A stretch of DNA of 32,000 bases from Rickettsiales bacterium (GTDB taxonomy: Bacteria > Pseudomonadota > Alphaproteobacteria > Rs-D84), in the NCBI GenBank assembly GCA_031288835.1, contig JAITQO010000006.1, positions 3,024 to 35,023 on the forward strand. The letters run 5' to 3'. Position 1 is the first letter of the stretch; each line of letters begins with the position of its first letter. The translations under genes and the position numbers were made by a program. This document shows, one piece after another, positions 1-27,338 of the stretch. The notes beneath the pieces are model-generated. The model was not told the DNA's origin. It searched no databases and was given only the letters and a program-made list of their open reading frames with translations.

Positions 1-2107
1 CGCGATTTTTTTCGTCTTCCTTGTCTTGCAAAAATTGCAGCTTGCCGTTTATTTTCGCCAGGCAGTCCCCCCTGTCTTTCTGAGCCGGCGATTCGCATTC
101 GCCATCTGCACCATCTGCAAGCTCCGCTTCTTTGCCCATTCCCATAAGCGCTTGTTTTATACCTCTGATCGCTTTGCTGAAATCAGTGCTGGACATTGAT
201 TGCAGTCCCGGCATATTGTTTCGTATGCAGGAAATGGTGTCCGCGCGGCTTTTGTTTCTGCAATCGATTTGACCGGCCACCGTGTCGCTGGACGTGGACG
301 ATGAAGACGAACCGGACGGGGCGCCGGCGGCCTCGGCCTTCGCGGTCATGACGGATTTCTGCATCTGCGTCTTGATTTGCTTTACCATCGATGTCAGGTA
401 ATCGCTCTGCTTTTTCAACTGCTGGGCGATTACAGTTGATTTCAAGGCAATGATTTCATCCATTTGGGATTTAACATCTTTGACTTCATTATTATTTGTT
501 TTCCCAACGTTATATGCGTGCGTCGAGCACATTCCATACAACTGGTTCGCGTAACAGGCATCTTCTTCGTCTAAATCGCATTTGCTGCAAATCTCTGCGG
601 GTTTTCCATTATCATCATATTTGCACAGGATTGCTCCATATTTTCTTGAACTTATTTTTGTGCGCAAGTCATCCACATCATTGATATCGACCGCGCAATA
701 ATTTCTGGCGGTGTCCAAAGATGCGTTGCTCTTCGGTTCATCCTGGTTGATGATGATTTCCAATGCGTCTATGTCCATGTTGGAAGATTTTTTGCGGCTG
801 CGGCGGGCAAAAATGCCGGATTGCAAAAGCCCGTCGCTCATGCACGCCATGCGGATGTTAGTCCCGTCCTCGCTGGCCGCCAAAATATAATTTTGCTGGA
901 TTTCATCGCGCTGGTCGTTGCGATACATCTCAACGAACGTACATTTGGGATTCACAGTCTTTTTTACTATGTTTTTATAGCCATCCTCCCCCGGGGTTTT
1001 CTTATTAGCGTCCTTTGCCCATTCGTATGTTTTACACTTATCACTGTCAACATATATTTTGTTTCCCCTATTGATAGGGTCTTCTCCACTCGGGTCTTTA
1101 TACTGTCCACCTTCGCAATAAACGAATGGGCTGTCGTTTTTATACGTGCACAGATATTTTCCCCACTGATTGCACGTGTTGTTCAACATCATATAGATGT
1201 CCGAAACGTCGATTCCGGCCGCCATCGCCGTGTAAAGCGAGTTTTCCAGCGAATCCAACACTCCGTCATACGGCTCGAAAAACGCCTGCGCCTTTTTGCG
1301 GAACGCCGCCACGCGCCGCGGCCCGGCGCAGCTGGTGGCGTTGTAGTCGCATTTCGCGTAATCCAAAACGTCCTTTACTATCTGTTTCAGAGATTTTAAT
1401 CCAGCATCCACTCCGTCAAGCGAACTCATGACCTGCCCCACAATCTGCTCGCGAGCAATCGCGTCCGCCGATACGCCCTTGTCAATTGCCGTCTGCACGC
1501 TTGCCGCCGGAGCCGCCGCCTGCTGCTTCGCCAATTCGGCCTGCTGCGCCAACGCCGCCTGTTGCTGCTGTGCCAGCGCCTGTTGCATTTGCTGCGCGCT
1601 CGACTCCTGCTGCGCCGTCATTTGCTGTTGCATCTGCTGCATCTGCTGCTGCATTTGCTGCATCTGTTGCGCCGATTGCGCCTGGGCCGCCGCGGCCTGC
1701 TGCTGCGCCGCCTGCGCGGCCGCTTCGTTCGCCTTTTTCGTATTCGATGCCACTATTTGCGCCGCAATCGCCTGTATCAGCGCATCGCCGTGTTTTTTGC
1801 ATTCCGACGAATCCGCCACGCAGCCCGCCACAATCGGCGTCGCGACGCCCATGTCCGTGCAGCCGCCGTTTCCGCATTTGGGCGTAGCGCACCGCAAAAT
1901 CAGCGCGTTGCAGTTACCAAAATCCGCCGTTGCCCCACCGCCGCCGCCCGCCGCCCGTTCCGGATTTATCATCTGATTGTATTGGTTGTTGTTCACGGCG
2001 CCCTGCTGGTTGCTGAAGGACGTAAGATTTCCGCCCGGCAGCACGTCGGCGGCGCAGAGGGACTTCGCGGCGAACAGCACGGCGAAAAAGGCGGTTGAAA
2101 ACTTCAT
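1..2107 (-). CDS. Secreted cysteine-rich protein with a Gln/Ala/Met-rich segment. The N-terminus is in the window and the C-terminus runs off the left edge (at least 702 codons).
   Basis: Not in the ORF track because it has no stop inside the window. I read the minus frame codon by codon (plus-strand triplets starting at 2, 5, 8...) and found no stop between 2 and 2104. ATG is at 2107..2105. The N-terminus MKFSTAFFAVLFAAKSLCA/AD looks like a Sec signal peptide. The mature part has about two dozen Cys. Confidence 0.75.
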   Translation of the reverse strand, partial: MKFSTAFFAVLFAAKSLCAADVLPGGNLTSFSNQQGAVNNNQYNQMINPERAAGGGGGATADFGNCNALILRCATPKCGNGGCTDMGVATPIVAGCVADSSECKKHGDALIQAIAAQIVASNTKKANEAAAQAAQQQAAAAQAQSAQQMQQMQQQMQQMQQQMTAQQESSAQQMQQALAQQQQAALAQQAELAKQQAAAPAASVQTAIDKGVSADAIAREQIVGQVMSSLDGVDAGLKSLKQIVKDVLDYAKCDYNATSCAGPRRVAAFRKKAQAFFEPYDGVLDSLENSLYTAMAAGIDVSDIYMMLNNTCNQWGKYLCTYKNDSPFVYCEGGQYKDPSGEDPINRGNKIYVDSDKCKTYEWAKDANKKTPGEDGYKNIVKKTVNPKCTFVEMYRNDQRDEIQQNYILAASEDGTNIRMACMSDGLLQSGIFARRSRKKSSNMDIDALEIIINQDEPKSNASLDTARNYCAVDINDVDDLRTKISSRKYGAILCKYDDNGKPAEICSKCDLDEEDACYANQLYGMCSTHAYNVGKTNNNEVKDVKSQMDEIIALKSTVIAQQLKKQSDYLTSMVKQIKTQMQKSVMTAKAEAAGAPSGSSSSSTSSDTVAGQIDCRNKSRADTISCIRNNMPGLQSMSSTDFSKAIRGIKQALMGMGKEAELADGADGECESPAQKDRGDCLAKINGKLQFLQDKEDEKNR
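1508..1729 (-). repeat. Imperfect CTG/CAT/CTG-type triplet-rich tract encoding a Q/A/M-rich segment (AAQQQAAAAQAQSAQQMQQMQQQMQQMQQQM...)
   Basis: The plus strand reads cat ttg ctg ttg cat ctg ctg cat ctg ctg ctg cat ttg ctg cat ctg around 1619..1670, flanked by ctg/cgc/ggc-rich codons. It lies inside the 1..2107 CDS. Confidence 0.7.
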
Positions 2108-2122
2108 TGCTCTCTCTTGGCT

Positions 2123-2131
2123 ATTTTATCA
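2123..2131 (-). promoter_or_regulatory. Extended -10-like element TGATAAAAT, 15 nt upstream of the ATG at 2107
   Basis: The reverse complement of attttatca (2123..2131) is TGATAAAAT, which fits TGnTAnAAT. It lies just downstream of the infC terminator hairpin. Confidence 0.4.
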
Positions 2132-2162
2132 GAAAACGTGGAAAAATGAAAGGAAAATTGTA

Positions 2163-2193
2163 AGATTCTTTGCGGCTTTGCCGCAAAGAATCT
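2163..2193 (-). terminator. Rho-independent terminator candidate after infC
   Basis: Perfect 14-bp inverted repeat agattctttgcggc / gccgcaaagaatct with a 3-nt loop (ttt). On the minus strand it is followed by TACAATTTTCCTTTCATTTTTC. The hairpin overlaps the infC stop codon (2192..2194). Confidence 0.6.
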
Positions 2194-2737
2194 ATGCGCG
2201 CACAGGCACGATTATTATTGATTTTCGAAGCTCGTCCGGCCTGGACTTGCTCTCCAGCACGGCGCGGCCCGCAAGCAGCGCAAGCACTTTGTCAAACAGG
2301 GTATTGATTGCGTCGCGGTTTCTCAACACTTTTTTATCCCTGCGCGTCATCGCGGAAATCTTGACCTTGCTGCCGTCGTTCAGGAACTCCTCGACCTTCT
2401 TCATCTTGATTTTCAAGTCATTGTCGTCGATAAACGGCTTCATCCAGATTTCTTTCAATTCGTTTTGTTTTTGGTTTTTTTTGGATTCCGACGCGCGCTT
2501 TTTCTGCTCGTATTTATACCTTCCGTAATCCATGATTTTCACAATCGGCGGAACGTTCGCGCCGTTTATTTCAACCAGGTCGAGCCCGGCATCCGCGGCC
2601 ATGGAAAGCGCCTGGGCGAGCGGCATGATGCCGATGTTCTTGCCGTCGTTGCCAATCAATTGCACGGATTTGGCAAAAATCCGGCCGTTTATGCGGGGAC
2701 CGGCGTCCCGCTTTCTATCAATGTTAAAGTTTGCGAT
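2192..2737 (-). CDS. infC: Translation initiation factor IF-3
   Basis: The track ORF 2192..2665 is IF-3-like (QLIGNDGKNIGIMPLAQALSMAADAGLDLVEI..., KEIWMKPFIDDNDLKIKMKKVEEFL). The frame stays open upstream and encodes I-A-N-F-N-I-D-R-K-R-D-A-G-P-R-I-N-G-R-I-F-AKS, the usual IF-3 N-terminus. AAAGGAG lies 6 nt before an ATC codon at 2737..2735, and no ATG/GTG/TTG sits at that position. Confidence 0.85.
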   Translation of the reverse strand: MANFNIDRKRDAGPRINGRIFAKSVQLIGNDGKNIGIMPLAQALSMAADAGLDLVEINGANVPPIVKIMDYGRYKYEQKKRASESKKNQKQNELKEIWMKPFIDDNDLKIKMKKVEEFLNDGSKVKISAMTRRDKKVLRNRDAINTLFDKVLALLAGRAVLESKSRPDELRKSIIIVPVRA

Positions 2738-2751
2738 ATTCGTCTCCTTTA

Positions 2752-2988
2752 TTAATGAATTGTCTGCAATTGAACAAGTGTATTTCTCATTTCATTTGCA
2801 ACACTCTCGACAATTTCGGCGTCCGTAAAGTCGCGCGGGACAAGCCCTTTCGCCGCCTCTTCCTCGCGCCGCCGGCGTTCGGCATGCATTTTCTCCTCAT
2901 ATTCGCGCAATCTCGGGTCCATAAGACTTATTTTCCGTTCATAACCAGCGTATGTTTCGTTCATTTTTTCGTTATCTTCTCTGCCCAT
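2752..2988 (-). CDS. Hypothetical highly charged 78-aa protein
   Basis: Internal Met of track ORF 2752..3048. AAGGAAG lies about 6 nt upstream of the ATG at 2988, 15 nt after the tRNA 3' end. The longer ORF version would overlap the tRNA. Its stop TAA (2752..2754) abuts the infC Shine-Dalgarno sequence. No family recognised. Confidence 0.45.
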   Translation of the reverse strand: MGREDNEKMNETYAGYERKISLMDPRLREYEEKMHAERRRREEEAAKGLVPRDFTDAEIVESVANEMRNTLVQLQTIH

Positions 2989-3003
2989 TTTTTCTTCCTT
3001 TTT

Positions 3004-3080
3004 TGGTCGGAGTGACTGGAATCGAACCAGCGACCTCTTGCACCCCATGCAAGCATTCTACCAGGCTGAACTACACTCCG
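3004..3080 (-). tRNA. trnP: tRNA-Pro, anticodon GGG, with encoded CCA
   Basis: The reverse complement is CGGAGTG TA GTTC AGCCTGGTA GAAT G CTTGC ATGGGGT GCAAG AGGTC GCTGG TTCGATT CCAGT CACTCCG A CCA. It has a perfect 7-bp acceptor stem, a 5-bp anticodon stem, loop A-T-GGG-G-T, and a T-loop TTCGATT. Confidence 0.93.
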
Positions 3081-3727: not shown

Positions 3728-3937
3728 TTAGAACTTAAAGCCGGAAAACTTTTTCTTGAACTCCTCCGCACGCTGGCCGCGGTCCTGCGCAATCCGCTGG
3801 CCCGTCCATGCGGGATGGTTCAGGTTGTCGACGGCAAGCGTCAAATCCTTGGTCGACGTGGAATACATTTTTATTTTCGTTCCGTCCGATTGAGTAACGG
3901 TGATTTCGTTATACTCCGGATGAATGCCCTTTTTCAT
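3728..3937 (-). CDS. rpmE: 50S ribosomal protein L31 (form without the Cys motif)
   Basis: MKKGIHPEYNEITV...NHPAWTG...FKKKF is the L31 signature. It lacks CxxC pairs. Start taken at the internal ATG (MKKGIHP), with GGGGA upstream. Confidence 0.9.
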   Translation of the reverse strand: MKKGIHPEYNEITVTQSDGTKIKMYSTSTKDLTLAVDNLNHPAWTGQRIAQDRGQRAEEFKKKFSGFKF

Positions 3938-3963
3938 CTTATAAATCCCCAATTTGTTTTCAA

Positions 3964-4054: not shown

Positions 4055-4077
4055 TATGCAAAAAAAAGGAGCGAACC

Positions 4078-7600: not shown

Positions 7601-8101
7601 ATGTTATCTTTATTGATGGCGAAATACGAACAAATTGTCGGCGCGGCGTTGGCTCTGAAAGAAGCAAAAGAACGCCAGGGGTTTTTCGAAGTCATCGCAG
7701 AGGCTGTCAAATCGCACAAACTGCAATTCATCAGGGATGTTCGGGAAATCATCAAAGACGCGAAATCGCGCATATCGAAATCCAGCATAAACATCGGAAT
7801 TATCAACCAATGACCGTCCGTCGGATTATTCGACAGCGACGAAAAATTGACCTTACAGGCGGATTTATTCAACACAATTTACGCATTCCAGATACCGCTG
7901 CTGCCGGAAGACCAGCCGAATGAGACAGAGGTGGAAAGATTTGGAATGTGGCGGAAAAACAAGCCATTCTCGAGAGAATTACAAAATAAAATGATTTCGG
8001 CAGAGCGTCCGTATAATTCAGAAATTCAGCTGATATCAGCTGATAAACGCAGCTTTCCGCGCGTTCAGCGGAGACGAAACAAAGTCGACATTAATGAGTG
8101 A
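7601..8101 (+). pseudogene. Possible decayed gene: two same-frame ORFs (70 and 84 codons) separated by a TGA, in an AT-rich gap
   Basis: 7601..7813 and 7847..8101 share a reading frame. The frame also stays open for about 40 codons after the TGA at 8099..8101. No SD and no recognisable family. Confidence 0.2.
8026..8043. repeat. 18-bp perfect palindrome TCAGCTGATATCAGCTGA
   Basis: Read directly from the sequence. It is self-complementary around the central AT. Confidence 0.9.
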
Positions 8102-8423
8102 AGAGGAATTGGCGACAGCAAAAGCCGCCCTGTCCAAAATCAAAACATCGTCGGGATTGTGAAAATTACCGCATGCGCTTACAATAACGCAAGGACGGCG
8201 GTGCGGACGCATTGCGAATAATAGTCCGCGCAATAGAACGCGCATTCATACACAACGGATATGCTCGAAACTGTCGACTTGTTGAAAATCCTCGGCCTGA
8301 AAAAGCCAGAGATATTGAAATTGATTGTAAATCCGATTTAATCGGAAAGTCGATATCCGGAATGACAAAGGGATAGAAGCGCAACGGGATGGCGAACCGC
8401 GCCCGTGAGCCATGGATTTCGAA

Positions 8424-11400
8424 CTATCGAATTTTCAACACTTTCCTTCTCAGCCTTTCCATCAGCACGAACAATGCCGGCGTCAGCAGATACGTCCACA
8501 CTAGCGCCCCGACCATTCCGCCAATCAAAACCGCCGACATGGATACCTTCGTTCCGTCTGTCGAGAACATTTGCGGCAACATTCCGGCGACAATCGCGAT
8601 TGTGGTCATCAGCATCACGCGGTGCTTGTCGTTATATTGCTCCCACAGCACGTCCGTTACGCCTTTCCCTTTCGCAATTTCCGATATGACGGGCTCGAGC
8701 ACCAGAATATTATCGTTCACAACTAGCCCCACCAGCATGATTACGGAGAGCATCGCCGCTATGTTGATTGTCCCGCCGGTCAGAAACAGAAATGCGAACA
8801 CGCCCGAGAACGCCGTGATAATCGAGGTAGCAATCGTGAACGGGTGGGTCAGCGAGTTCATAATCGCCGCCAGCAATATAAACGTCAGGATTGTCGCCAG
8901 CAGGAACGTCTTGCCCATTTCTCCGGTGGTCTCATCCTGCATTTCGGACATTCCGCCGTAAATCACGCGGTAATCCTCGGGCAGGTTCATGTCGCGAATA
9001 ATCGCGTTGATTTTCGTGCGGACGGGGCCGATTGTCGATTTTCCGAGGTTGACGTTTATCTCGGTCTGGCGGTGCTTGTCCACGCGGTAGATGTTGCGGC
9101 TTGCCGGGCGGTATTCCAGTTTGCCCAACTCAGACACCGGGACCATTCCGCGCTGCGTGGGAATCAGGATGTTCGAGACCGAATCCACGGTCTTGTAAAG
9201 TTTCGAGAACTCTATAATCAGCGGATATTCCTCTCCCTTTTCGCGGAACTTCAACGTGTCGTCGCCATAAATCGCCGTGCGGAGGGCCACGCCGACGGCC
9301 GCGTTCGACGTCCCCCATTCGTTCATCCTCCGTTGGTTCGGAATAAACTGGATTTCTTCGGTCGGCGTCTGCTCGGCCAGCAGCGCGGACTGCACCTCCT
9401 CCAGCCCGTTTATTTTCGCCATCAATTCGTCGGCTATGCCCTCCCGAATCGGGTCGTCTTCCCCCAAAACGCTGATTACCATGTCCGCGGCGCTGCTCGG
9501 ACCGCCTATCTCGCCAGCTTTTATCAAGAAATCCGCATCCGGAATATCCGCGAACGCGGCGACCAGGCGCTGCGCGATTTCCTTGTCGGACGCCCGCCCG
9601 GACGACGGCACAAGGGTCAGGCTCGCGCCGATGTTTTGGATTCCGCGGCGCCCGATTTTAAAGGACGCGGCCGCGACCTCCGGAAACTCGGCCAATTTGT
9701 CCTCAATCCTTTTCGCCAGCTTGTGGGTCTTGTCGAATGTCGCCCCCATCGGCGCGCGCGCGGTGATGTTGATTTCGCCGGTGTCCGCCGACGCCGAGAA
9801 CTCGTTCCCGACAAACCGCAGCAGAAACGACGAGGCGAACAGAACGCCGACCGCGAGCCCCAGCCACCGCCACGGATGCTTCATCTCGGAATTGAAAATG
9901 CCCTTGAACCAATTTAGCTGCATCTTTTCGTGCTTCAGCGTGGCGGCGACTTTTTTCTTTTCGGCCTTTTTCATGAACTTCGCAATCATCATCGGCGTCA
10001 GGGTGAACGAGAACAAAAGGGACATTACCGTCAGATACACGACCGTCATTCCGAACTGGTTCATGAACAATCCCGCGATGCCCTCCATGAACGCCAGCGG
10101 CAGAAACACGACTATGTTCGTGCCGACGCCCGCAAAAATCGCCACGGCCGCCTTTTTCGCGCCTTCGATTGCGGCGTGCTCGGGCTCGTGCCCTTCCTCC
10201 AAAAGATTCAGGCTTGATTCAATCAAAATAATCGCGTTCGCAATCAGAGTTCCCAGCGCGGACGCAATCGCCAACAGCGTCATCGAATTGATTGAAAATC
10301 CGCTGCTGTTCATGAACAGGAATCCGGACACCAGCGACACCGGAATCACGACGCCCGCAATCACGGTTGAACGCCAGTTCTTGGTGAACGCGAGCAGAAC
10401 GATGACCGTGAGAATTATTCCGAAAATGATTCCCTGCAGGGTGGAATCAGTCTCCCTTCGGATTGATTCGGCGGAATCGTATGTGATTTTTATGTCCGCA
10501 TTCTCGTTCTTCAGACCTTGCTTCACCAGTTTTTTATAATAATCCAGGCGCTGGCGCACGCCGTCGGAAATCTTCACCGCATTTCCGTCCGTCGCCTTCA
10601 CGATGGATATAATCAGGACGTCCTCGCCCGCATATCGCCCGCCAAAGCTCGGGTCCTTCGCGGTATCCATGACCTCGGCGATATCCTTCAGACGGAACCG
10701 AAGCCCCTCTGCCGTCGTGATTGACATGTTTTCAATCTGTTCGACGGTCGCGAATTCGCCGATGAAGCGTATGGAGTTCGCCGCCCATTTCGATTCGATT
10801 TTCCCGGCCGGCACGTTCAGGTTGTGCGCGGTTACCGCCTGCAGAACGGCCGAGATTGAAACGCCCTTGGCGGTCATGCGCTGCGGGTCCAGGAACACGC
10901 GTATGGCCCGCTCGCGGCCGCCGAATACCTCGACGTCCGCGACGCCGTGGACGGCCGTTATCTTCTGGGACAAAATGGTATCCACGAATTCATACGCGTC
11001 GCGCAAATCGGCGCCGGAAATCGCCAGCTCCATCACCGATTGCTGCATCAGGTTCAATTTTCTGACAACCGGCTGTTCCAAATCGTCCGGCAGATTGTAG
11101 GCGATGGAGTCAACCATTCCCTTGACTTCCTGCTGCTTTTCGAGCGCGTCTTCGCCAAGGTTGAACTCCGTCACGATATAGGCGTAGTTGTCGTAAATCT
11201 GCGACGTGATTTTCTTTATCCCGGAAACCTTGGAAATAGTGTCTTCGACCGGCTTCACGACCTGCGATTCGATTTCCGCCGGACCGGCTCCGGGATAGAG
11301 CAGCGTCGTCGTCACCATGGGCAAATCCATCGGCGGCATACGCTCCACATTCATCTTAGGATAAGACACGATTCCCATAACGACCCAGAACAGGACGAAC

Positions 11401-11559: not shown

Positions 11560-12054
11560 TCATTTGATTACAATCCTTTCTCCGTCTTTCAATCCGGCAA
11601 CAACCATTCGCTGGTTATCCTTTGCGACGACCTTCGCTCCGGCGGGCAGCACGGCGTCAACCGGCAGAAAGAATCCCGTGTATTCGCGCAGGGCCATCAC
11701 GTTCCCGGTTATATTTCCAGACACGCGGACGATGAACATTCCCGTGTCCAGGTCGATGTCTCTGGAAACAAACGTTATATTGGCGTCTTTATCCTTGATT
11801 TTCTGCCCTGTCGAAAACATGTGGACTCTGTCCGCGGACACCAGCGCGCGGCCGTTTTGCACGAATAGCGGCTCTTCCAAGAAATCCGTTGTTTTTTCCG
11901 CGACCACGTATTCGTGCGGACTGCCCTTTTCCTTGTGAATCCTGACGATATTGTTGACATGCCTGACGCCCTCCTCGCGCAGTTTTTGAATGCGGTATCC
12001 GACCAGGACGGACAATAAGAGAATCGATAAAAATATTGCGGCTTTCTTTTTCAT
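11560..12054 (-). CDS. Membrane-anchored mini periplasmic adaptor-like protein (164 aa)
   Basis: It has an N-terminal TM/signal anchor (MKKKAAIFLSILLLSVLVGY) and a C-terminus ...AKVVAKDNQRMVVAGLKDGERIVIK that resembles the terminal beta-strands of MFP/HlyD-type adaptors. It sits between the tolC-like and RND genes, with a 4-nt overlap with tolC. Confidence 0.5.
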   Translation of the reverse strand: MKKKAAIFLSILLLSVLVGYRIQKLREEGVRHVNNIVRIHKEKGSPHEYVVAEKTTDFLEEPLFVQNGRALVSADRVHMFSTGQKIKDKDANITFVSRDIDLDTGMFIVRVSGNITGNVMALREYTGFFLPVDAVLPAGAKVVAKDNQRMVVAGLKDGERIVIK

Positions 12055-14010: not shown

Positions 14011-15042
14011 TTAAGATTCGACTACTTTAATAATATTATTCACAGCGTTGTTCGGGACATGCGCAAGCGTCGCCATTTTTTGCAATTTCTCAGGATTCGA
14101 CAGCAATTTCTCCAACGTTTTGCCCAGCAATTCCGGCGCAAAATCTTTCTGCTCGATTACAATTCCACCGCCGTTTTTCGCAAACTGCTTCGCGTTCGCC
14201 AACTGGTCCGGATTGATGCCGAGCGGCACAAGAACGGCCGGCACCCCGACCGTCTGCATTTCGACGACCGTGCCTGCGCCCGCGCGGCTGATGACCAATG
14301 ACGCCGCCGACAATTCGCCCGCCATGTCTTTTATGAATGACAAAACGTTATTCTTGACGCCGCCCGCGGCATACGCTTTGCGCAATTTCTCGACGTTCTC
14401 GGGCCGCGTCTGATGAATCACGAACAGGGATTTTTTTATTTTTTCGGAAAGACTTTCAATCGCCGCCGGACACGTCTCGTCCAAAATCCTCGCCCCCAGC
14501 GACCCGCCGGTGACAAGAAGCCGCCGGCCATAGTTCATGCTCAGCGGTTCATCTCGGCGACGGAATCCCTGTCTGACCGGCAGACCGACATGAACGCCGG
14601 CGCCAATCGGAAACGTGGTCATCAGCGTTTTGACAAACGGCATGGCGAACCTGTTCGCGCGGCCGATTGCCGCGTTCTGTTCGTGCATAAACGTCGGAAT
14701 GCCCCAAATCCAGCCCGCAATCAGCGGCGGAACGCTGGAGTATCCCCCGAACGCGACGATTTTATCCGGACGGGAAAAAACAAAACGAACGGACAACGCC
14801 AGCGTCGACACGCCAATCTTGAGCAAAGACCAAAATTGAAACAACGGATTTTTCGCGCCGACGCCGGAGGCCCAGACGAACGCGCGCCGATAATTACGGA
14901 CATATTTTTTCCCGCGGCCATCCGTCGACACAATCACTTTGCGACCGCGCGCAATCAGCTCGTCCGCGACCGCCAGGGCCGGAAAAATATGCCCGCCCGT
15001 GCCGCCGGTAGCAATCCAGAACTTTTTTATGTCGCGCACCAT
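14011..15042 (-). CDS. murG: UDP-GlcNAc:lipid I N-acetylglucosaminyltransferase MurG
   Basis: ATGGTGGHIFPALAVADEL is the N-terminal G-loop. Also GGYSSVPP and a C-terminal SRAGAGTVVE block. Confidence 0.9.
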   Translation of the reverse strand: MVRDIKKFWIATGGTGGHIFPALAVADELIARGRKVIVSTDGRGKKYVRNYRRAFVWASGVGAKNPLFQFWSLLKIGVSTLALSVRFVFSRPDKIVAFGGYSSVPPLIAGWIWGIPTFMHEQNAAIGRANRFAMPFVKTLMTTFPIGAGVHVGLPVRQGFRRRDEPLSMNYGRRLLVTGGSLGARILDETCPAAIESLSEKIKKSLFVIHQTRPENVEKLRKAYAAGGVKNNVLSFIKDMAGELSAASLVISRAGAGTVVEMQTVGVPAVLVPLGINPDQLANAKQFAKNGGGIVIEQKDFAPELLGKTLEKLLSNPEKLQKMATLAHVPNNAVNNIIKVVES

Positions 15043-16112
15043 TTGCCCTGCCTTATCAATGACAGAATGATAGCAAACAATATGCTGAATGCAAGCAGCG
15101 ACGAGCCCCCGTATGATATGAAGGGCAGCGTCGTTCCCTTCATGACCCCCCCGAGAGCGGTCAGAATGTTCATAGCCACATGAATGGCAAACAATAGCGC
15201 CGCGCCGAAAATGACCAACGACGAAAATTCGTCCTTGTTTTCAACCGCGCGGCGGAACAGCAGGCAGAACAAAACGAACATCGCGCCGACCAGGGCGGCG
15301 CACGCGACCGCCCCCCACATTTCCGCCAACCCGGCGAACACAAAATCGTTGTTCGCCATCGGGACGTTTTGGAACAGGAAACTTTCGTCTCCGCGCCCCC
15401 ACAGCCCGCCGTTCCTGATTGCGTCAAGCGAGCGTCCAATCTGATACCCGTCGGACCCGCCGAATATCCTCATGCGGAAATGGGAATGCGTCAGAGACAC
15501 CAGAAACGCGGCCGCCCCCGCGCCGACGAACGCGAGGACATACCGCCACCTCATTCCCGCCCAAAACAGCATCGTGCCGAAAACCGAGATATACATGAAC
15601 ATGTTTCCCAAATCCGGATGGAAAAACATAGAGAGCAGGATGGCCATAAACGCCGCCAGATAGGCCGGCCACCATCCGCCTTTCCAAAGCGGCGCGGCGC
15701 CAATCCAATCATCCGGCGCCCGCCTTTTGACCTCGGTTATGAACCATGCGGTCAAGACGATGAACGCGGGCTTCATCAAATCCGCCGGCATGACCGAAAA
15801 TCCGCCGATTCGCGCCCACCGCAGGGAATTGTTGATTCTGTGCGGGTCGGCGTATGTCAAAAGGAACAACGCCATGCATGCGGCGAACAACAGCCACATC
15901 AATCCGATTATGGTCTTCTTCCTGCCAATCATCGGAACGAACAGGAAAATCACCAGGGAAACGCCGTAGAACAGGAATATCTTATCCAGAACGTGAAGGG
16001 AATGAAAACCGGCGAGCAGCCCGACGAACGAGAACGCGAAAACCAGTCCCAGAATCCACCAATCAATCTGAAACCACCAGTTTGTGAACAAAGAACGGTC
16101 AGACCTTTTCAT
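15027..16112 (-). CDS. ftsW: SEDS-family peptidoglycan polymerase FtsW/RodA
   Basis: Polytopic membrane protein with NDFVFAGLAEMWG and TTLPFISYGGSSLL motifs. It sits between mraY and murG and overlaps murG by 16 nt. Confidence 0.85.
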   Translation of the reverse strand: MKRSDRSLFTNWWFQIDWWILGLVFAFSFVGLLAGFHSLHVLDKIFLFYGVSLVIFLFVPMIGRKKTIIGLMWLLFAACMALFLLTYADPHRINNSLRWARIGGFSVMPADLMKPAFIVLTAWFITEVKRRAPDDWIGAAPLWKGGWWPAYLAAFMAILLSMFFHPDLGNMFMYISVFGTMLFWAGMRWRYVLAFVGAGAAAFLVSLTHSHFRMRIFGGSDGYQIGRSLDAIRNGGLWGRGDESFLFQNVPMANNDFVFAGLAEMWGAVACAALVGAMFVLFCLLFRRAVENKDEFSSLVIFGAALLFAIHVAMNILTALGGVMKGTTLPFISYGGSSLLAFSILFAIILSLIRQGKWCAT

Positions 16113-16203
16113 TTTTCAACCTTTGGCCCAAAAATAATTATAAATTATGAATTACTTTCGATACCAAAAAATCTCATAATTAAATCGCAAAATGTCATGC
16201 GTC

Positions 16204-17253
16204 TTACAATTTCAGCACTGCGATGGCGATTCCGGCGAATATGATTGACGCGATGAAAAAGCGCTCGACTATTTTCGTTTCCGACCACCCTTTCAGCTCA
16301 AGATGGTGATGCAGCGGCGCCATCAGGAACGGAGGTTTTCCCTTCGGCGCGACAAACCTGTAATACATCATCTGGGCGAACGACGATAACAGCACCAAAA
16401 CCATCACGGCGCTTGCCACGGCCATGACGATTTCGGATTTCATCAGCAGCGCCGACGTTCCGAGCAAACCGCCCAGCGCAAGCGCCCCTACGTCGCCCAT
16501 AAAAATGCTCGCCGGCTTGGCGTTGAACCACAAGAACCCCATGACCGCGCCCATAGTCGCGCCGAAAATCGGGAACAACGCCGCCGCCTCGGGCAGAAAT
16601 ATCAGGGACGGCATGAACCCGACGCGCGTTATTCCAACCAGCGCGACAACCAGAACGGACAGCGGGCACAGAATGACTTTCGCCAGCATGCCGTCCAGTC
16701 CGTCCGTTATGTTCGCGGCGTTGGCGGTTCCGACAATCACAAGATACGACCACACGAAATAAAGCATGCCCAGCGGCAGAATGATTCCGAACGGCAGAAC
16801 CACGGACAGCATGGGAACATACGCGGGCATCGTCATGTCTATCAGGAACGACAGGAACACCGCTATCACGCCCGCGGCCAAAAGACGCCCCATTTCGGAC
16901 AACCCGGCATAGGCGTTTCCACGAATAACCTTGTTGTAATCGTCCAAGAATCCCATGGCGCCGAACAGAACCAGCGCAATCAGGGGCGTCCACGCGACCA
17001 AGCTGGACCAATCCATAAACAAAAGCGACGCGGTTATAATCGCCGGAATGAACACCAGGCCGCCCATTGTCGGCGTGCCTTTTTTCTCGTCGACATGCTT
17101 TTGGATTCCGTCCGTTCTTACCGGCTGGCCGCGGCGCTGCCATTTTTTCAGCGCGGGAATAAGCAGGCGCCCGAATATCAGAACCAAGACGAACGCCGCC
17201 GCAAATGCCGCGGAAAACGCCACGCTGTTTTTTGATAGAAAATCAGTTATCAT
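16204..17253 (-). CDS. mraY: Phospho-N-acetylmuramoyl-pentapeptide transferase MraY
   Basis: KKGTPTMGG, NAANITDGLDGM and FMGDVGALALGG, plus the C-terminal APLHHHLELKGW, are MraY signatures. Confidence 0.92.
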   Translation of the reverse strand: MITDFLSKNSVAFSAAFAAAFVLVLIFGRLLIPALKKWQRRGQPVRTDGIQKHVDEKKGTPTMGGLVFIPAIITASLLFMDWSSLVAWTPLIALVLFGAMGFLDDYNKVIRGNAYAGLSEMGRLLAAGVIAVFLSFLIDMTMPAYVPMLSVVLPFGIILPLGMLYFVWSYLVIVGTANAANITDGLDGMLAKVILCPLSVLVVALVGITRVGFMPSLIFLPEAAALFPIFGATMGAVMGFLWFNAKPASIFMGDVGALALGGLLGTSALLMKSEIVMAVASAVMVLVLLSSFAQMMYYRFVAPKGKPPFLMAPLHHHLELKGWSETKIVERFFIASIIFAGIAIAVLKL

Positions 17254-17271: not shown

Positions 17272-19758
17272 TTATGAATCCGCTATCGGGCATACTTTTG
17301 GGGTTCCTGTAATCTTCCCCGTTTTTTGGCATTGACAATATGGGGATATAATACCTTTTGCCCCATCATTTCCATTGTTTGCGACATTATAGCATTCACC
17401 CGTTCCCGTTGAAGGGCAGGTACCATCAGCGGCGCATGTTCCAGTGCATGTATTGATAACCGACACCGAGTTACTCGGACAAGTGTTGCATACGTTACCG
17501 AAAACGTAATATCCCTCATAGCATTTGCAAGTTTCACTGACATATCCGTTTTCAGTGCCGTTGGCAGAAGGAGTATTGCTACTGCCGGCATATCCCGAGT
17601 TTGCCGGGCAGGCGGGCGCCGATGCGGGAATCTGCGCGCACGTTCCGACGGAAACATAATATCCGCTGTTGCACTTGCAGTTGGAATTGATATATTTGGA
17701 TTTTTCAGCGGGCACGACGCCATCGCTGTCCTGCAACGTGTCGCTCCAAGTAGAGTTCAGCGGGCACATCAATGTCTGATAGAACATATTTGACAGTCGG
17801 TCTATCAATGCATTCTGTTCGGTGACGCTATCGCGCGCGCCGGCGGTCGAAAACACCACATACGCGCAGGACAGCGCGACGCTGCGGCACGCGCCCATCA
17901 ATATAGGCCTTACTATGGACGGCGACAAACTGGTTCCGATGCCGTATGAGTTGGCGCTGGTAATCTGCCCGTTATAGCATGTGGAAACGTCTGTCAGGCA
18001 TGTTTTGGCGTATTCCGCAATAACGCCCGACTGCGCCGCGATGATTTGCGACATGGTGCGCTCCATATACGATTTTATGACGGTATTGTTGTCGACATAC
18101 TGCCCGTCGCTGTAGGTGTATCTGCGGCATTTGTCCAGCACCGGGCGGCAGAATCCGGACACGACGCGCCCGTTGTTGTCCATCACGCCGATTTTGGATT
18201 TCAGATAATCGACGATTTCCTTTCCATTTGTCTCGTTTGCCGCGGTGGCGACGTCGCAGCTGGCGGGCTCCGAAACGGATGAATCCAGCAGGCGGGCGAG
18301 ACACCTTGCATCGTAGGTGCTGGCGTATTCTTTCAGCGCGACAAGGTCGCCGCCCGGAATGACGTTGCCGTTTTCGTCAATCGCCCTTTTGCTCGGGTCG
18401 ACGCATTTGTAGTATTTGTCGCCGCAAACCATCTCGTCCCTCATGCATGAATCCAGCGCGCTGACGCAACCTTTGGCGTCATAGGCGTTCTGTTCGCCGA
18501 GGACGGTCAGGCGCGCCTTTTGCAGCATCTGCGTCGCCGAGCGGATATTCGTCTTGACGCCCGCGGTGGCCTTCTTCAGCCCCGCCTCGTATTGTATGCA
18601 CGCCTTGTCTATCTCGATGTCGTATTGCCCCGAGATAATCGACTGGTCCGCCTTTTTGGCCGCGCAGCGGGTAAGAATCGGCTTGCACTTTTTCTTGGCG
18701 GCGGCGTATAGCTCGGTTCCGCGCATATTGGCGAACGACTCGTTGTCGCCGAAGAGGGAGCTCAGGTCAAAATCGTCGCCCTCTCCGGAAAAATCCAAAC
18801 TAAAATCCAAAGAAGACGAACCGCCGGAACTGTAATCCGCAGTCGGCGATTTTATTAATTTCTCAATTTCTTCAAGCATGCTGCGCGACTGAGTCCTGTC
18901 CTCCGTCGTGCTCATGACCTTTTCCGCCTCGGTTTCTTTCATAATGCTGCGGATTTCGTCCGCGGCCAGGCCGACATAGCGGATTTGCTGGGCGACATTG
19001 TTCAGCTCGTTGTTCGCTTCGGTCAGCGAATCCTCGACCTTTTTATACTGCGACAGACGTCCGGAGCACGAGCACTGCTTCTGGTTCGCATCCAGAACGT
19101 TGCAGAACTGGTTCATGCAGTCGAAATACGACGCGGAGCAGTCCGCCAGCTCGCTGGCAGCGCTCGGCGCCTCGGCCGATTCCGCCGTCCCTTCGAACAT
19201 GGTGTCGACAGCCGCGCGGGAGCGGCGCGAAAGTTTTCTGGAAACCTCATCGTCAATATTCTGGCCGGCCGCAGCCTGGGCGCGCCCCGTGACGGCGCGT
19301 CCGTCTACTTCGACGAAAGACGGGCGCGAACCGCCGCCGCCGCGCGTTGAAGCGCCGCGGCCCGATTGGGATTGCGCCGCCGCGCTGCGCGTGGCGGTGG
19401 CGGCCGGGGCGCCGGAGCGGCCCCGAGAAACAGCGGCGCGAGAAATCGTCTTTGCGCCCGCCGCAGACGCGTCGCGGGATGTCGCCGCCTGGGCGGCGGC
19501 CGATTCAGCCTCCTCAGCCTCCGCGGATGCCCTTGATTGCTCCTTATTCGCCTGGACGGCCATGCGCGACGGGCGGCCGGCCGCAGACTGCTCGTTCTTG
19601 CCTGCCGCCGCCTTTGCGGCCGCGGCACGGGATATCTTTTGAACCTCCCCGGCCAGCGGCGACGGACCGACGGAAACAACGCGCGACGAACGCGCCGTAT
19701 CGTCCGCGAAAACCGCACTCGAAACGACAGCCAGAAAAACTGCGAGAACATTCTTCAA
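17272..19758 (-). CDS. Large secreted protein (828 aa): signal peptide, R/A/S/G-rich low-complexity region, Cys-rich core, C-terminal furin/EGF-like Cys repeats
   Basis: N-terminus MKNVLAVFLAVVSSAVFA/DD. Residues about 21-195 are low complexity. It shares the motif CSASYFDCMNQFC...CSCSGR with the 25353..27338 protein. The C-terminus has CKCNSGYYVSVGTC and CKCYEGYYVFGNVCNTC. The predicted start is TTG. Confidence 0.75.
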   Translation of the reverse strand: MKNVLAVFLAVVSSAVFADDTARSSRVVSVGPSPLAGEVQKISRAAAAKAAAGKNEQSAAGRPSRMAVQANKEQSRASAEAEEAESAAAQAATSRDASAAGAKTISRAAVSRGRSGAPAATATRSAAAQSQSGRGASTRGGGGSRPSFVEVDGRAVTGRAQAAAGQNIDDEVSRKLSRRSRAAVDTMFEGTAESAEAPSAASELADCSASYFDCMNQFCNVLDANQKQCSCSGRLSQYKKVEDSLTEANNELNNVAQQIRYVGLAADEIRSIMKETEAEKVMSTTEDRTQSRSMLEEIEKLIKSPTADYSSGGSSSLDFSLDFSGEGDDFDLSSLFGDNESFANMRGTELYAAAKKKCKPILTRCAAKKADQSIISGQYDIEIDKACIQYEAGLKKATAGVKTNIRSATQMLQKARLTVLGEQNAYDAKGCVSALDSCMRDEMVCGDKYYKCVDPSKRAIDENGNVIPGGDLVALKEYASTYDARCLARLLDSSVSEPASCDVATAANETNGKEIVDYLKSKIGVMDNNGRVVSGFCRPVLDKCRRYTYSDGQYVDNNTVIKSYMERTMSQIIAAQSGVIAEYAKTCLTDVSTCYNGQITSANSYGIGTSLSPSIVRPILMGACRSVALSCAYVVFSTAGARDSVTEQNALIDRLSNMFYQTLMCPLNSTWSDTLQDSDGVVPAEKSKYINSNCKCNSGYYVSVGTCAQIPASAPACPANSGYAGSSNTPSANGTENGYVSETCKCYEGYYVFGNVCNTCPSNSVSVINTCTGTCAADGTCPSTGTGECYNVANNGNDGAKGIISPYCQCQKTGKITGTPKVCPIADS

Positions 19759-19767: not shown

Positions 19768-19776
19768 ATTATAGCA
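19768..19776 (-). promoter_or_regulatory. Extended -10 element TGCTATAAT, 9 nt upstream of the TTG start at 19758
   Basis: The minus strand reads GTTCTGCTATAATTGAAGCATATTGAAGAATG. Confidence 0.4.
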
Positions 19777-19892
19777 GAACACAGGGCGATTATGAAGCGA
19801 TTATTAGTCCGAAATCCGAAACCCATGGCCCAATCCCCACCGTCATTCCGGCGCTTTCCCCTTGCGGTTTCGAATATCTCTCATCCATTTCG

Positions 19893-23329: not shown

Positions 23330-23678
23330 ATGTCTTCCTTTATGTTACGGACAACTATACAAAACCGCGGAAAACCTTGCAAGAAAATAATTTCGCGCAT
23401 GTGTGGCTGAAAAAACGGCCTTTTCTGCGATTTTATTTTTCTAGAAAATTACATTAGAAGTCAAAAAGAAACGCATGCCGGCCGATTATATGCGCTAATT
23501 ACTATAAGTGCAAACTTTATCATAACAATCTTTATCATCGCATGCGCTTTCTGGCGCGGGTAAAGCAAGGTTGTTATCGACATCATACCACTTGTTTCTT
23601 GTCATTTTGCCTCTCACCGCTTATTTTATTTGTATTTTCCATTCGCATCTTTTACCATATATGTTAAAAAGGAAAAAG

Positions 23679-24338: not shown

Positions 24339-24342
24339 TTTT

Positions 24343-24351
24343 TGATATAAT
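24343..24351 (+). promoter_or_regulatory. Extended -10 element TGATATAAT, 14 nt upstream of the ATG at 24366
   Basis: An exact TGnTATAAT match, immediately after the plsC stop. Confidence 0.4.
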
Positions 24352-24365
24352 GCTCCAAACATGGA

Positions 24366-24917
24366 ATGAAGAGAATAATTCTGTCATTATATGCGATTAT
24401 GGCGTTGCCGTTCGCGCTGTTTGCCGCGGACGAGAGGTTCGTCGACTGCGGCGAGGGATATGTCATCGCGAACGCCAGTCCGCGCGACGGCATTCCGGCG
24501 AAGGAATGCAAAAAATTATGGTGCCGAGACCTTGAAAACAACAAAAGCATGGGCAGGGAAAACACCGCCGCGGCCGGATATGTCGCCACGACATCGCCCG
24601 TGGAGATTTGCGACAGCCAGAATAATTGCATAAAATGCTTCGGGAAAAGAAAATGGTGCACCGACAACGGCGACTTCAACCCGGAATACGGCGTTTACAC
24701 CAAGGGGAGCAGCAGACTGCACCGCAGCGTTCTTTCGGGCAACTGCTATAAATGGCAGATGCTGAACCACAACTGCGGCCCGAACGAGGTCGCGATAAAC
24801 GACGGCGATTCATGGATTTGCCTGAATCAAAGCGGCGGCACCGAGGCATCGCGCGCAGCAATCAAGTCAAAGGCAATCCGCAGGACGACCACAGCGCCGA
24901 TAATAAGGAAAAAATGA
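24366..24917 (+). CDS. Small secreted cysteine-rich protein (183 aa)
   Basis: Signal peptide MKRIILSLYAIMALPFALFA/AD. The mature part has 14 Cys, including a CGEGYV motif that echoes the CxxGYY repeats of the 828-aa protein. Confidence 0.65.
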   Translation: MKRIILSLYAIMALPFALFAADERFVDCGEGYVIANASPRDGIPAKECKKLWCRDLENNKSMGRENTAAAGYVATTSPVEICDSQNNCIKCFGKRKWCTDNGDFNPEYGVYTKGSSRLHRSVLSGNCYKWQMLNHNCGPNEVAINDGDSWICLNQSGGTEASRAAIKSKAIRRTTTAPIIRKK

Positions 24918-25321
24918 GGGGGAACAAAAAGATTCTCGTCGGATTCGCGACAAAAACCTCGGCTGTTTTGCCGAGTTTTTTTTGCGCGCTGTTCCGTCAT
25001 TGCGCAATCGTCGCCGACGGAATGCTGATTCAGATTGGAACGGATAAAATCCGGCTGTTCCGCGTCCGCGCGCGCGAAATCAGAAAGTTGGAAAACGCAG
25101 GATGGGTGTTTGTTAAAGTCAATAGTCCAAAGTCGATAAAGAACGGCCGCACAAGCGAAAGCCGGCTGTCGGCCATTGACTTTGGACTATTGACCTTTTT
25201 GACCTGCGTGGGATTCGCGAAACGGGCGCTTGGAATCCGCGCGCCTTTCGTATGGACGCCGGACCAATTGTTCAGAATGCTTGCAACACGCGACCTTAAG
25301 CGGCGCGGAAAAAACTTATAG
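24914..25321 (+). CDS. Hypothetical 135-aa protein; possible permuted papain-like (NlpC/P60 or YiiX-like) fold
   Basis: The ATG overlaps the upstream stop (ATGA). A His-containing block FRHCAIVADGMLIQIG is followed about 75 aa later by the Cys block LTCVGFAKRALGI. This weakly resembles the His-then-Cys order of permuted papain-like amidases. Confidence 0.4.
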   Translation: MRGNKKILVGFATKTSAVLPSFFCALFRHCAIVADGMLIQIGTDKIRLFRVRAREIRKLENAGWVFVKVNSPKSIKNGRTSESRLSAIDFGLLTFLTCVGFAKRALGIRAPFVWTPDQLFRMLATRDLKRRGKNL

Positions 25322-25352
25322 GCTCTTCACCCCCGGCAAAAAAAGTTATCAA

Positions 25353-27338
25353 TCATGGAGTCGCCGGGGCCGACCAGCCGCGGATTTCGCCCACATTCAG
25401 CGTATTCAGCATGCAGCTCTCCGCCGGCGCCTGGCTTGCCGCGACGATTTCCGACAACAGAACGGTATTCCGCGACGAATCGGAAACCGAGGAGTTTATA
25501 CCGGTCGCCTCCTGGTTGCAAACCATCTGCTCGTAGCATGTCGGAACGTTCGACATCTGGTTGCAGAAGTTCTTTATGCGCGTGGTGTTTCCCGTCCATC
25601 CGCTCTCGCGGTTCTTATCCTGGCGGCACTGCATTATTTCGTCTATGCATTTCAGATAATTCTCCTTCGCAGTGGCCAGCGACTGCAATCTGTTGTTTTC
25701 CTTTTCCGTCGTGAACTCGAGCCTCTTTTTCTGAAGCAGCTGCGTGGCGGCGATTTTCTGATACGCCATGTTCTGCGCCTGCTTCTTCAGCTCCTCCCCG
25801 TAAACGTCGCAATCCGCGTTCGCGTCCAGAACATACTTTTGCAGGATGGACAGGCGCGCGTCCGCAATCGGCTGGCGCAATGTCGAATACGGGTCGCCCG
25901 ACGTGCTGGTGTATCCGAAGCACGCCGCGGTTCCGGTGCTGGCGGTCGTTCCCTTCGGCGTCACGAATTCAATGTCGTTTCCGTTCACGGTTATGTCGCT
26001 GTTCATGTTATACGGCCCGCTGCCGCCGCCCTGGGACGTCGGGCGGTTTCCGCACATCTCGTAAATGCCGTTGAAGCACGAATCCAGGACGCGCCCGCAC
26101 ACGTTGTTGTGCGCGTATTGGAACAGCTCGTATCCCCATGTCTGCGCCAGTTTGTCCACGCTGGTCTCCGTTTCAAACACGGAATTGCTGCCGTTGACAA
26201 TCAGGTCGACATTGTTGAACGAGCTGAACAGGTTGTCTTCATTGGAATAGTTGAACGTGTTCACTTCGTTTAAAGTGTCCGCGTATGTCTGCAGAGACGT
26301 CAGAATGTCGGAATCGGCGCCGTTCAGAATGTTCATCCATGCGTCGCCGGTTCCGTTGCCATACAACGTGTTGCAGGTCGAGTTCATCGACGACTCGCAC
26401 GACGCGGTGTCCAGCATCAGATGCGCGTCGCACCACGCCTTCATCGACGCGTTCGCCCCCAGGCGCTTTTTTTCATCCCGGAACGACACGCAGTTCAGGG
26501 ACTTTTCCGCATCGGTCAGCTCGAACGCCGAATGGATTGATTCGCCTTTCGATGCAATCAGAAGCGACAGTTCGCCCGAAACCTTCAGCAAATCCTCCTT
26601 GGCCGTCTGCAGGGTCGCCTCGACCGTATTGAACGTCTTCACGCGGCCGGCGCACGCGCAGCGCCTTTGTCCCGGATTCCGCGCGGTGCAAATCTCGTCC
26701 ATGCACGTGTAGTATGAAGACAGGCAGTTGGAATAAGAATCCGCCGACAGCATTCCGGTCGTCGGGTCAATCAGGTTGCTGTATGTGGCCTGCGCGAGCT
26801 TTGTCGTCAGAGTGCTGCCTATCGTTCCGGTTGACGCGCGTATTGCCGAGCCGGTCAATCCGACCCGCGCCTGCTGAATGCCGCCGCTGCGCGCGATGAC
26901 GCTGCGGGCCTGTCCCGTGGCGCGGATGGCCGCCGCCGGCGCGCGCGAGCGGACCGTTCTTTGCGCCGCCGCGGCCGTCGTCCTTGTCGCCCCTCCGCCG
27001 CGCACGGCCACTCCGCGCGACTGCACCGACGGCAGCGCGACGGCCGCCGTTGCTTCCCTGCCATTATTCGCATTTTGCTGAACCGAACGCGAAGACCTCG
27101 TATTGCCGGACGCGCCGCGGACGCCGCGGACGGCGCCGCCGCCCCTCTGAACACTCGCGGAAAGGATGCCGCGCGGACTTTGCGCCGACGCGGCGGCAGG
27201 CAGAACCTCCGCCTGCACAGGGTCGGCGAACGCGGCGGACACCGAGAAAACCACAAGAAAAATGAACAGAAATCCGGCGGTCAAAAACAGGCTGCCCACA
27301 AGACCCTGGATTCTGGCATATAATTGGCGAGACTTCAT
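25353..27338 (-). CDS. Large secreted cysteine-rich protein (661 aa), paralog of 17272..19758
   Basis: Signal peptide ...FLFIFLVVFSVSAAFA/DP, an R/A/S/G-rich region (residues about 39-180), then CLSSYYTCMDEICTARNPGQRRCACAGR, which aligns with the other paralog at nearly the same residue number. AGGGAG SD lies 7 nt before the ATG. Confidence 0.75.
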   Translation of the reverse strand: MKSRQLYARIQGLVGSLFLTAGFLFIFLVVFSVSAAFADPVQAEVLPAAASAQSPRGILSASVQRGGGAVRGVRGASGNTRSSRSVQQNANNGREATAAVALPSVQSRGVAVRGGGATRTTAAAAQRTVRSRAPAAAIRATGQARSVIARSGGIQQARVGLTGSAIRASTGTIGSTLTTKLAQATYSNLIDPTTGMLSADSYSNCLSSYYTCMDEICTARNPGQRRCACAGRVKTFNTVEATLQTAKEDLLKVSGELSLLIASKGESIHSAFELTDAEKSLNCVSFRDEKKRLGANASMKAWCDAHLMLDTASCESSMNSTCNTLYGNGTGDAWMNILNGADSDILTSLQTYADTLNEVNTFNYSNEDNLFSSFNNVDLIVNGSNSVFETETSVDKLAQTWGYELFQYAHNNVCGRVLDSCFNGIYEMCGNRPTSQGGGSGPYNMNSDITVNGNDIEFVTPKGTTASTGTAACFGYTSTSGDPYSTLRQPIADARLSILQKYVLDANADCDVYGEELKKQAQNMAYQKIAATQLLQKKRLEFTTEKENNRLQSLATAKENYLKCIDEIMQCRQDKNRESGWTGNTTRIKNFCNQMSNVPTCYEQMVCNQEATGINSSVSDSSRNTVLLSEIVAASQAPAESCMLNTLNVGEIRGWSAPATP

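Follow-up and report, generated by a model that had tools for sequence, protein, structure and literature searches.

Three families of exported, cysteine-rich proteins in the Rs-D84 order of gut bacteria and a putative helical cysteine module common to two of them

In Chlamydia, disulfide cross-linking of the exported envelope proteins OmcB and OmcA gives the envelope its rigidity. Other systems that can be compared with the one described here are the Hcp proteins of Helicobacter, which are secreted helical proteins with Sel1-like repeats in which regular cysteine pairs staple adjacent helices; the twin CX3C/CX9C (CHCH) proteins of the mitochondrial intermembrane space, in which cysteines at fixed spacing on the face of a helix bond a neighbouring helix; and Braun's lipoprotein (Lpp), an exported helical, coiled-coil protein. 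Here we analyzed four genes, named A, B, C and D, that encode exported cysteine-rich proteins in a stretch of 32,000 nucleotides (the window; positions 3,024 to 35,023 of the forward strand of contig JAITQO010000006.1, assembly GCA_031288835.1). The window comes from a termite-gut metagenome-assembled genome (MAG) of a 'Rickettsiales bacterium' with locus tags beginning LBT45_. Relatives include 'Candidatus Enterousia', which a 2025 paper places in the GTDB order Rs-D84 of the Alphaproteobacteria (PMC12306168). Members of Rs-D84 were described there as gut bacteria without respiration or respiratory chains, with genomes of <1 Mb and about 850-900 genes, predicted to be obligate symbionts or parasites of other cells and to use 'hypothetical membrane-bound proteins' in cell interactions (PMC12306168).

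The proteins studied here resemble OmcB and OmcA in their predicted Sec-dependent export, in a cysteine content of about 4%, and in belonging to a host-dependent bacterium with a reduced genome; this functional analogy lies behind the structural role in the envelope that we propose below. They are unrelated to OmcB and OmcA in sequence, neither the four proteins nor 177 members of their families having a Pfam or NCBIfam match, and the structural models, unlike OmcB, are mainly alpha-helical or coiled-coil; moreover, Rs-D84 keeps its peptidoglycan synthesis genes. The stapling of adjacent helices by cysteine pairs, as in Hcp, is predicted here too, but we found no match to Sel1/TPR profiles (E <= 1 for the window proteins and E <= 0.01 for the family members), and these proteins are much larger, with no regular repeat array, long single helices and basic tails. 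As in the CHCH proteins, cysteines would recur at a fixed spacing on a helix face (C-x6-C, that is i and i+7, one heptad), whereas the spacing itself, the size (660-830 amino acids vs about 100), the compartment and the oxidation machinery differ, and there is no homology. The likeness to Lpp lies in export, in a helical or coiled-coil build and in a proposed part in envelope architecture, here through a genomic link to cell-wall genes; unlike Lpp, the proteins carry no lipobox, are not homologous to it, and are much larger and cysteine-rich.

The four genes and their main features occupy the following positions in the window:

1..2107, minus strand: gene A (LBT45_00770), 702 amino acids inside the window; the full identical protein, P0241, has 708, its last 6 codons lying beyond the window edge
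2051..2107, minus strand: signal peptide of A, residues 1-19, ending ...KSLCA/AD, read from the sequence; Sec-type N-termini are kept in homologs
1799..1912, minus strand: N-terminal six-cysteine block of A (C66, C73, C78, C83, C96, C103), including the module C-x3-h-x2-C-h-x3-C (h, hydrophobic residue; about 13 residues in all); these cysteines are 96-97% conserved
17272..19758, minus strand: gene B (LBT45_00860), 828 amino acids, TTG start, predicted secreted cysteine-rich protein with 36 cysteines, paralog of D by alignment
19159..19701, minus strand: N-terminal low-complexity tail of B, residues 20-200, rich in Ala, Arg, Ser and Gly, net charge +8, recognized by composition
19066..19140, minus strand: five-cysteine motif of B, C207-x6-C214-x4-C219-x9-C229-x-C231, 100% conserved and aligned cysteine for cysteine with D
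17275..17841, minus strand: C-terminal extension of B, residues 640-828 (about 190), with CKCxxGYYV...C repeats, not in D; the B-D alignment stops at B607
24366..24917, plus strand: gene C, 183 amino acids, predicted secreted protein with 10 cysteines and a basic C-terminal tail
25353..27338, minus strand: gene D (LBT45_00895), 661 amino acids, predicted secreted cysteine-rich protein, paralog of B by alignment; all 20 cysteines conserved
26754..27221, minus strand: N-terminal basic low-complexity tail of D, residues 40-195, net charge +16, recognized by composition
26652..26726, minus strand: five-cysteine motif of D, C205-x6-C212-x4-C217-x9-C227-x-C229, the first three cysteines on one predicted helix (model residues 5-23)
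25611..25877, minus strand: predicted continuous 89-residue helix of D, residues 488-576, with heptad-type periodicity (helix 294-382 of the AlphaFold2 model; predicted local distance difference test, pLDDT, 80-93)

The original prediction had read these genes as one family recurring at four loci. Pairwise and profile-profile comparison instead separated three sequence families, B/D, A and C; the observation was largely right, and 'one family, four loci' only partly right. We hold with high confidence that these are three unrelated Sec-exported families whose cysteines are probably all paired in disulfides, that full-length homologs of A, of B and of D each number in the hundreds in Rs-D84, that B and D derive from an old duplication and often stand in tandem, and that A, B and D have in common a module which, in the models of A and D, lies on one predicted helix.

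All four open reading frames (ORFs) were found where they had been predicted, and the quoted signal-peptide ends were correct and are kept in homologs. Judged by inspection, each of the four proteins begins with a Sec-type signal peptide whose A-x-A-like cleavage site is conserved in homologs, and no lipobox was seen in the homolog N-termini. The cysteine density noted in the original prediction was also borne out: cysteine makes up 3.56% of A, 4.35% of B, 5.46% of C and 3.03% of D, against 0.53% pooled over 20 other genes of the window. We rejected the idea that the whole secretome is cysteine-rich, as other signal-peptide families near D had a median of 0.78% cysteine, and the TolC-like protein, AcrB and an exported 411-residue protein had about 0%. 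Because cysteine is low in these other envelope and secreted proteins, the enrichment is specific to A, B, C and D.

The pattern of the cysteines suggests how they are used. Within each of the families A, B and D, cysteine columns are at or near 100% conserved; in A, 20 of the 25 cysteines are kept in >=78% of 120 homologs. About 95% of homologs have an even number of cysteines in the mature protein (113/117 for A, 111/117 for B, 109/119 for D and 11/12 for C), although totals range from 16 to 34 in A, 26 to 57 in B and 20 to 40 in D, the changes coming in steps of two. Variable cysteines co-occur as pairs, such as 434/441 (r = 0.96) and 614/622 (r = 1.0) in D. These even counts and paired gains and losses, together with the lack of a CxxCH motif, the scarcity of CxxC and histidine, and the export signals, argue strongly though indirectly that all cysteines are disulfide-bonded.

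Searches returned 874 homologs of A, 555 of B and 1185 of D. Among the matches listed (the best 120 per search, to which all details of identity, source and annotation refer), homologs were full-length, 35-80% identical and all annotated as hypothetical, and the named ones all came from MAGs of uncultured gut 'Rickettsiales' or 'Alphaproteobacteria'. Relatives of D occur in 284 genomes, each representing a species, sampled from the guts of termites, ruminants, horses, rodents, birds and humans, and families A, B and D are conserved across the sampled Rs-D84 genomes. The C family is small, with 23 cluster representatives among 1.84 billion clustered proteins. As had been claimed, these exported proteins belong to no recognizable family: scanning the four proteins against Pfam and NCBIfam, and 177 family members individually against Pfam, gave only sub-threshold or low-complexity matches; sequence-profile searches of the PDB gave no match, and neither did Foldseek against the PDB and BFVD. 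A TFIIA match in A fell below the Pfam cutoff and was due to a Q-rich region. A literature search for cysteine-rich proteins in this lineage or for the CX6C motif found nothing relevant, and a 2026 preprint on cysteine-rich repeats concerned a different repeat. By these searches, A, B/D and C are three new orphan families of a general kind, disulfide-rich exported proteins of host-dependent bacteria, that is known.

Sequence comparison indicates that B and D are ancient full-length paralogs from an old duplication, with a conserved cysteine framework that goes beyond composition. BLASTP joined them with 52-55 bits, and their Smith-Waterman score was 188 against 53 +/- 7.5 for shuffled sequences (z = 18). 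With 120-member profiles, hhalign aligned B4-607 with D23-657 over 487 columns (probability 98.9%, E = 2.8e-17), and reciprocal matches of hidden Markov models (HMMs) were at 1e-15 to 1e-18. The alignment pairs 12 cysteine columns, including the five-cysteine motif and two later C-x6-C pairs; the two genes that had been called clear paralogs are therefore related over their whole length, with conserved cysteine spacing. The motif strings given for them in the original prediction begin at B205 and D203; at residues 207 and 205, which it named as the starts, lies the first cysteine of each motif. After the signal peptide, both proteins continue into a tail 150-180 residues long with much Ala, Arg, Ser, Gly and Thr; a 62-sequence alignment shows R139, R145, P146, R154 and A155 of the B tail to be invariant.

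The C-terminal extension of B, and only this part, can be compared with tumour necrosis factor receptor (TNFR), ephrin-receptor-like and epidermal growth factor (EGF)-like repeats, both having short C-x-C-x2-G-Y-Y-V...C repeats. Weak Pfam matches of these kinds (PF23091, PF07699, PF07562, PF12946) were found in a few B homologs, 1-2 of 62 members; all lay below the curated thresholds, and the B protein of the window had none of them. A strong promoter-like site, TTCATA-17-TATAAT preceded by TG (10/12 matches), lies at 19768..19796 on the minus strand and ends 10 nucleotides 5' of the TTG start of B. Its position suggests a transcript leader that is very short or absent.

The relation of A to B and D is of another kind. 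Whole-protein profiles of A and B/D were joined by hhalign with a probability of about 1% (E 0.05-0.07), and the motif regions alone with 0.2%; Smith-Waterman comparison gave z = 2.5 and -0.3, no better than chance, and there were no HMM cross-matches. Yet the folded regions of A, B and D all start with C-x6-C-x4-C, and the 'looser version' of the motif that the original prediction saw in A indeed has this same spacing, which 2.6% of shuffled A sequences also show. Consecutive cysteines in A, B and D are most often spaced as C-x6-C (P = 0.045, 0.0005 and 0.0145, respectively). Comparison with related loci covered up to 80-81 loci, for which gene calls were crude. Among 1189 ORFs of the window and 80 related loci, the module C-x3-h-x2-C-h-x3-C matched 119 times, against about 1 in shuffles, and was found only in ORFs of the A, B and D families plus one protein of 1035 amino acids at locus L003. 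Gene C has neither the module nor C-x6-C-x4-C, and it matched A, B and D in hhalign through the signal peptide only (Smith-Waterman z <= 1.1). These sequence comparisons suggest that A is tied to B and D by a module, whether shared or convergent, and not by descent of the whole proteins from one ancestor.

AlphaFold2 models were made of A and D. The model of D195-661 (64 sequences) had a mean pLDDT of 75 and a predicted template modelling score (pTM) of 0.52, and was mostly helical with a small beta subdomain; its first helix carries C205, C212 and C217. In helix 488-576 of D, hydrophobic power was 0.56 at a period of 3.5, against <=0.08 at other periods. The model of A (mean pLDDT 70.6) starts with a helix, residues 63-78, that bears all three cysteines of the module, followed by long helices and a small central beta region. 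The proposal of the original prediction that all four genes form one divergent superfamily, with A and C beyond sequence detection, would draw on these likenesses: the module at the start of the folded region, confined to these families among the 1189 ORFs, the favoured C-x6-C spacing, and the opening of both models with a three-cysteine helix followed by long helices. We nevertheless consider it quite improbable, given the profile probabilities for A against B/D and the lack of the module in C. A and C are linked to B/D only by a signal peptide and cysteine richness, to which A adds a module of about 13 residues; one four-member family is not supported.

The module-bearing protein of L003 (5057..8164, plus strand), from a human-gut Rs-D84 genome, is a predicted secreted protein with 41 cysteines, three copies of the module and C-terminal hydrophobic segments. 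It has no match to the A, B or D HMMs, sits between rluD and an A ortholog, and may represent a fourth module-bearing family. At four other loci (L028, L037, L046 and L077, at about 7700..9240), a second, short A-like ORF of about 260 amino acids, with 176-182 bits to the A HMM, stands between the full-length A ortholog and D.

The window is a housekeeping stretch of about 54% GC in which the minus strand holds most genes, among them infC, inositol monophosphatase, truA, fmt, def, rmuC, acrB, a tolC-like gene, marR, murG, ftsW, mraY, merR and gyrA; plsC lies on the plus strand. That infC, mraY and plsC adjoin the cysteine-rich genes, as the original prediction had said, was confirmed. In 12 loci B comes immediately after D on the same strand, the stop and start codons overlapping in L001, whereas in the window the two are parted by a merR-gyrA-plsC-C block. 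Within 10 kb of D we found B in 32/80 loci and A in 9/80. The density of these genes, which had been called unusual, is partly an accident of this genome: D and B form an ancestral tandem in relatives. The neighbours of D and B in related loci are mostly housekeeping genes. Placement beside core genes, also called unusual, is normal in a genome of about 0.9 Mb, but one such link may carry meaning:

14011..17253, minus strand: mraY-ftsW-murG, directly downstream of B (Pfam; 18-nucleotide gap)

No terminator-like site is present in the 18 nucleotides between the stop of B and the start of mraY. A block of the penicillin-binding protein 1A gene (PBP1A), mraY, ftsW and murG lies within 10 kb of D or B in 13/81 loci, and PBP1A in 15. 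The block and D/B occur together in at least five arrangements, for example D>PBP1A>mraY, D>B>PBP1A, murG>...D>B and B>mraY. In division and cell wall (dcw) gene clusters, the position upstream of mraY is usually occupied by murF. At 14011..17253, ftsW and murG come straight after mraY without an intervening murD, and B stands upstream in the slot of murF, where relatives have PBP1A.

Taking the models, the cysteine pattern and the gene neighbourhood together, we propose that D and B act as a disulfide-stapled helical or coiled-coil structural element of the envelope, with A as a second component and C as an accessory; we give this reading a probability of roughly 35-40%. D and B together would form a heteromeric rod in which disulfides from the module helix staple neighbouring elements. 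Joint action of D and B is suggested by their direct same-strand tandem, to which the proximity of A to D at some loci adds, and the rod-like build by the mainly helical models, with helices of 50-89 residues and heptad periodicity. With their long, basic, flexible N-terminal tails, D and B would be an element of the cell envelope, in the periplasm or on the face of the outer membrane, giving a minimal cell mechanical stability or spacing in functional connection with peptidoglycan synthesis. The junction of B with mraY and the recurrent proximity of the PBP1A-mraY-ftsW-murG genes argue for this connection. A would have evolved independently, as a second component of the same design, and C would be a small accessory protein resembling a cysteine knot. 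Strong conservation, mostly in a single copy per genome, is more in keeping with a core structural part than with a variable adhesin or effector.

Several points weigh against this proposal. In genomes of about 0.9 Mb almost any gene adjoins housekeeping genes, and the loci are not phylogenetically independent, so that proximity to the peptidoglycan cluster is evidence of weak to moderate strength. B does not lie within 10 kb of D in 44/80 loci. The AlphaFold2 models are of moderate confidence only (pLDDT 75 and 71, pTM about 0.5). The proteins may also be secreted onward to the cell surface. Since Rs-D84 is reported to have no respiratory chains (PMC12306168), the usual DsbA/DsbB-quinone route to disulfides is possibly missing; a regular-expression search of the related loci for DsbA-like CxHC proteins gave mostly spurious antisense ORFs.

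Two sets of neighbours of D deserve description. Directly upstream of D, at 27400..28635 on the minus strand, is a gene for the exported 411-amino-acid protein mentioned above, which has no cysteine and no Pfam match. Arg, Ser and Thr are abundant in its N-terminal part, and conservation is seen in the last approximately 100 residues; 13 related loci have the gene, often just behind murG. Beyond it, on the plus strand, a five-gene cluster lies at 28650..31216 and runs on past the window end (L005, 3678..8647). It encodes three large pilin-like proteins (483, 374 and about 427 amino acids), a zinc-ribbon membrane protein and a small secreted protein, is followed by rluD, and is kept in this genome, L001 and L003. 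The N-termini of the pilin-like proteins resemble class III signals, for example 'GASLLEMMFAIAIVAVA', and the 483-residue protein scored 31.4 bits, above the Pfam cutoff for Shufflon_N (PilV). The published description of Rs-D84 mentions type IV pili for another lineage only (PMC12306168). We rejected a general tie between D and this cluster, which lies within 10 kb of D in 5/81 loci.

Large helical extracellular proteins stabilized by disulfides are typical of parasite surface proteins, which would speak for the main rival to the envelope-structural proposal: that these proteins are surface adhesins, or parts for attachment or nutrient acquisition, that bind a partner cell, be it a bacterium, a gut protist or host epithelium, with disulfides that resist gut proteases. 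It would suit a lineage predicted to depend on partners and to rely on 'hypothetical membrane-bound proteins' (PMC12306168), as well as the sub-threshold receptor-like and EGF-like cysteine repeats at the C-terminus of B, the PilV-like pilin cluster that adjoins D here and in L001 and L003, and the C-terminal transmembrane segments of the 41-cysteine protein of L003. However, identities of 40-50% across the order, with invariant cysteines and mostly single-copy genes, appear to exceed the conservation typical of adhesins; Pfam and NCBIfam scans found no outer-membrane anchor, autotransporter or known sorting signal; no secretion system for crossing the outer membrane was identified here; and the pilin cluster is seldom near D. 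We consider this alternative doubtful. A broader version, in which A, B/D, the L003 protein and further Rs-D84 proteins share an undescribed disulfide-stapled helical module and would build an order-specific extracytoplasmic lattice or attachment structure behind the partner-dependent lifestyle, seems unlikely to us.

Secreted effectors or toxins directed at competing microbes or host cells would also be exported cysteine-rich orphans in a partner-dependent organism, and two B homologs have weak matches to the LXG domain (best E = 2e-4, below threshold). Pfam and NCBIfam scans found no signature of a toxin, an enzyme or an immunity gene, the genes show synteny, occur mostly once per genome and are conserved throughout the order, and they are located in housekeeping operons rather than in mobile or variable regions; a role as effectors is thus very improbable. 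Finally, high cysteine content and invariant cysteine positions could reflect binding of metals or cofactors (zinc, iron-sulfur clusters or haem) in periplasmic redox or storage proteins, which is hardly credible given that the four proteins have no CxxCH motif, that there is at most one CxxC per protein and 0-1% histidine, that even parity and paired gain and loss fit disulfides, and that the lineage has no respiratory chains (PMC12306168).

Some further observations concern gene C and its surroundings. C follows plsC both here and in the metagenome contig L086, and the order of plsC, C and a next gene is kept in L086. In the window, an ORF of 135 amino acids (24914..25321, plus strand) overlaps the stop codon of C; it is a called gene in the source contig and has no Pfam match. 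The arrangement suggests an operon of plsC, C and the 135-amino-acid gene, the C homolog of L086 also having a gene after it. A basic motif, [ASG][IV]RR[AT][GTAS], is present in the N-terminal tail of 61/120 B homologs and in the C-terminal tail of 6/24 C homologs. By pattern match, its sites are:

about 19250..19370, minus strand: B residues about 130-170
about 24858..24914, plus strand: C residues about 165-183

Among the 1189 ORFs, this motif was confined to the B and C families, with 12 matches against 0-4 in shuffles; it may be a weak shared linear motif or due to chance. Elsewhere in the window, between the tolC-like and acrB genes, a gene at 11560..12054 on the minus strand encodes an exported protein of 164 amino acids with no family. 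It holds the slot expected for a periplasmic adaptor (membrane fusion protein), but adaptors are usually far longer.

Rs-D84 bacteria live widely in the guts of humans, ruminants, rodents, birds and termites and manage with about 900 genes. For their annotation, this work adds three families of proteins, all new, and a diagnostic motif. Should these be ordinary periplasmic structural proteins, the impact of the finding would be confined to the Rs-D84 lineage. A lattice or attachment structure of the kind considered above would, in a lineage that has no respiratory chain, call for a non-canonical route of oxidative folding to form its 10 to 18 disulfides in each protein. A non-respiring anaerobe with a minimal genome would thereby have dozens of extracytoplasmic cysteines to oxidize. 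Some 6.6 kb of a genome of about 0.9 Mb goes to A, B and D; conserved throughout the sampled members of Rs-D84 and without a match to anything known, they are good candidates for a part in envelope architecture or in contact with partner cells.

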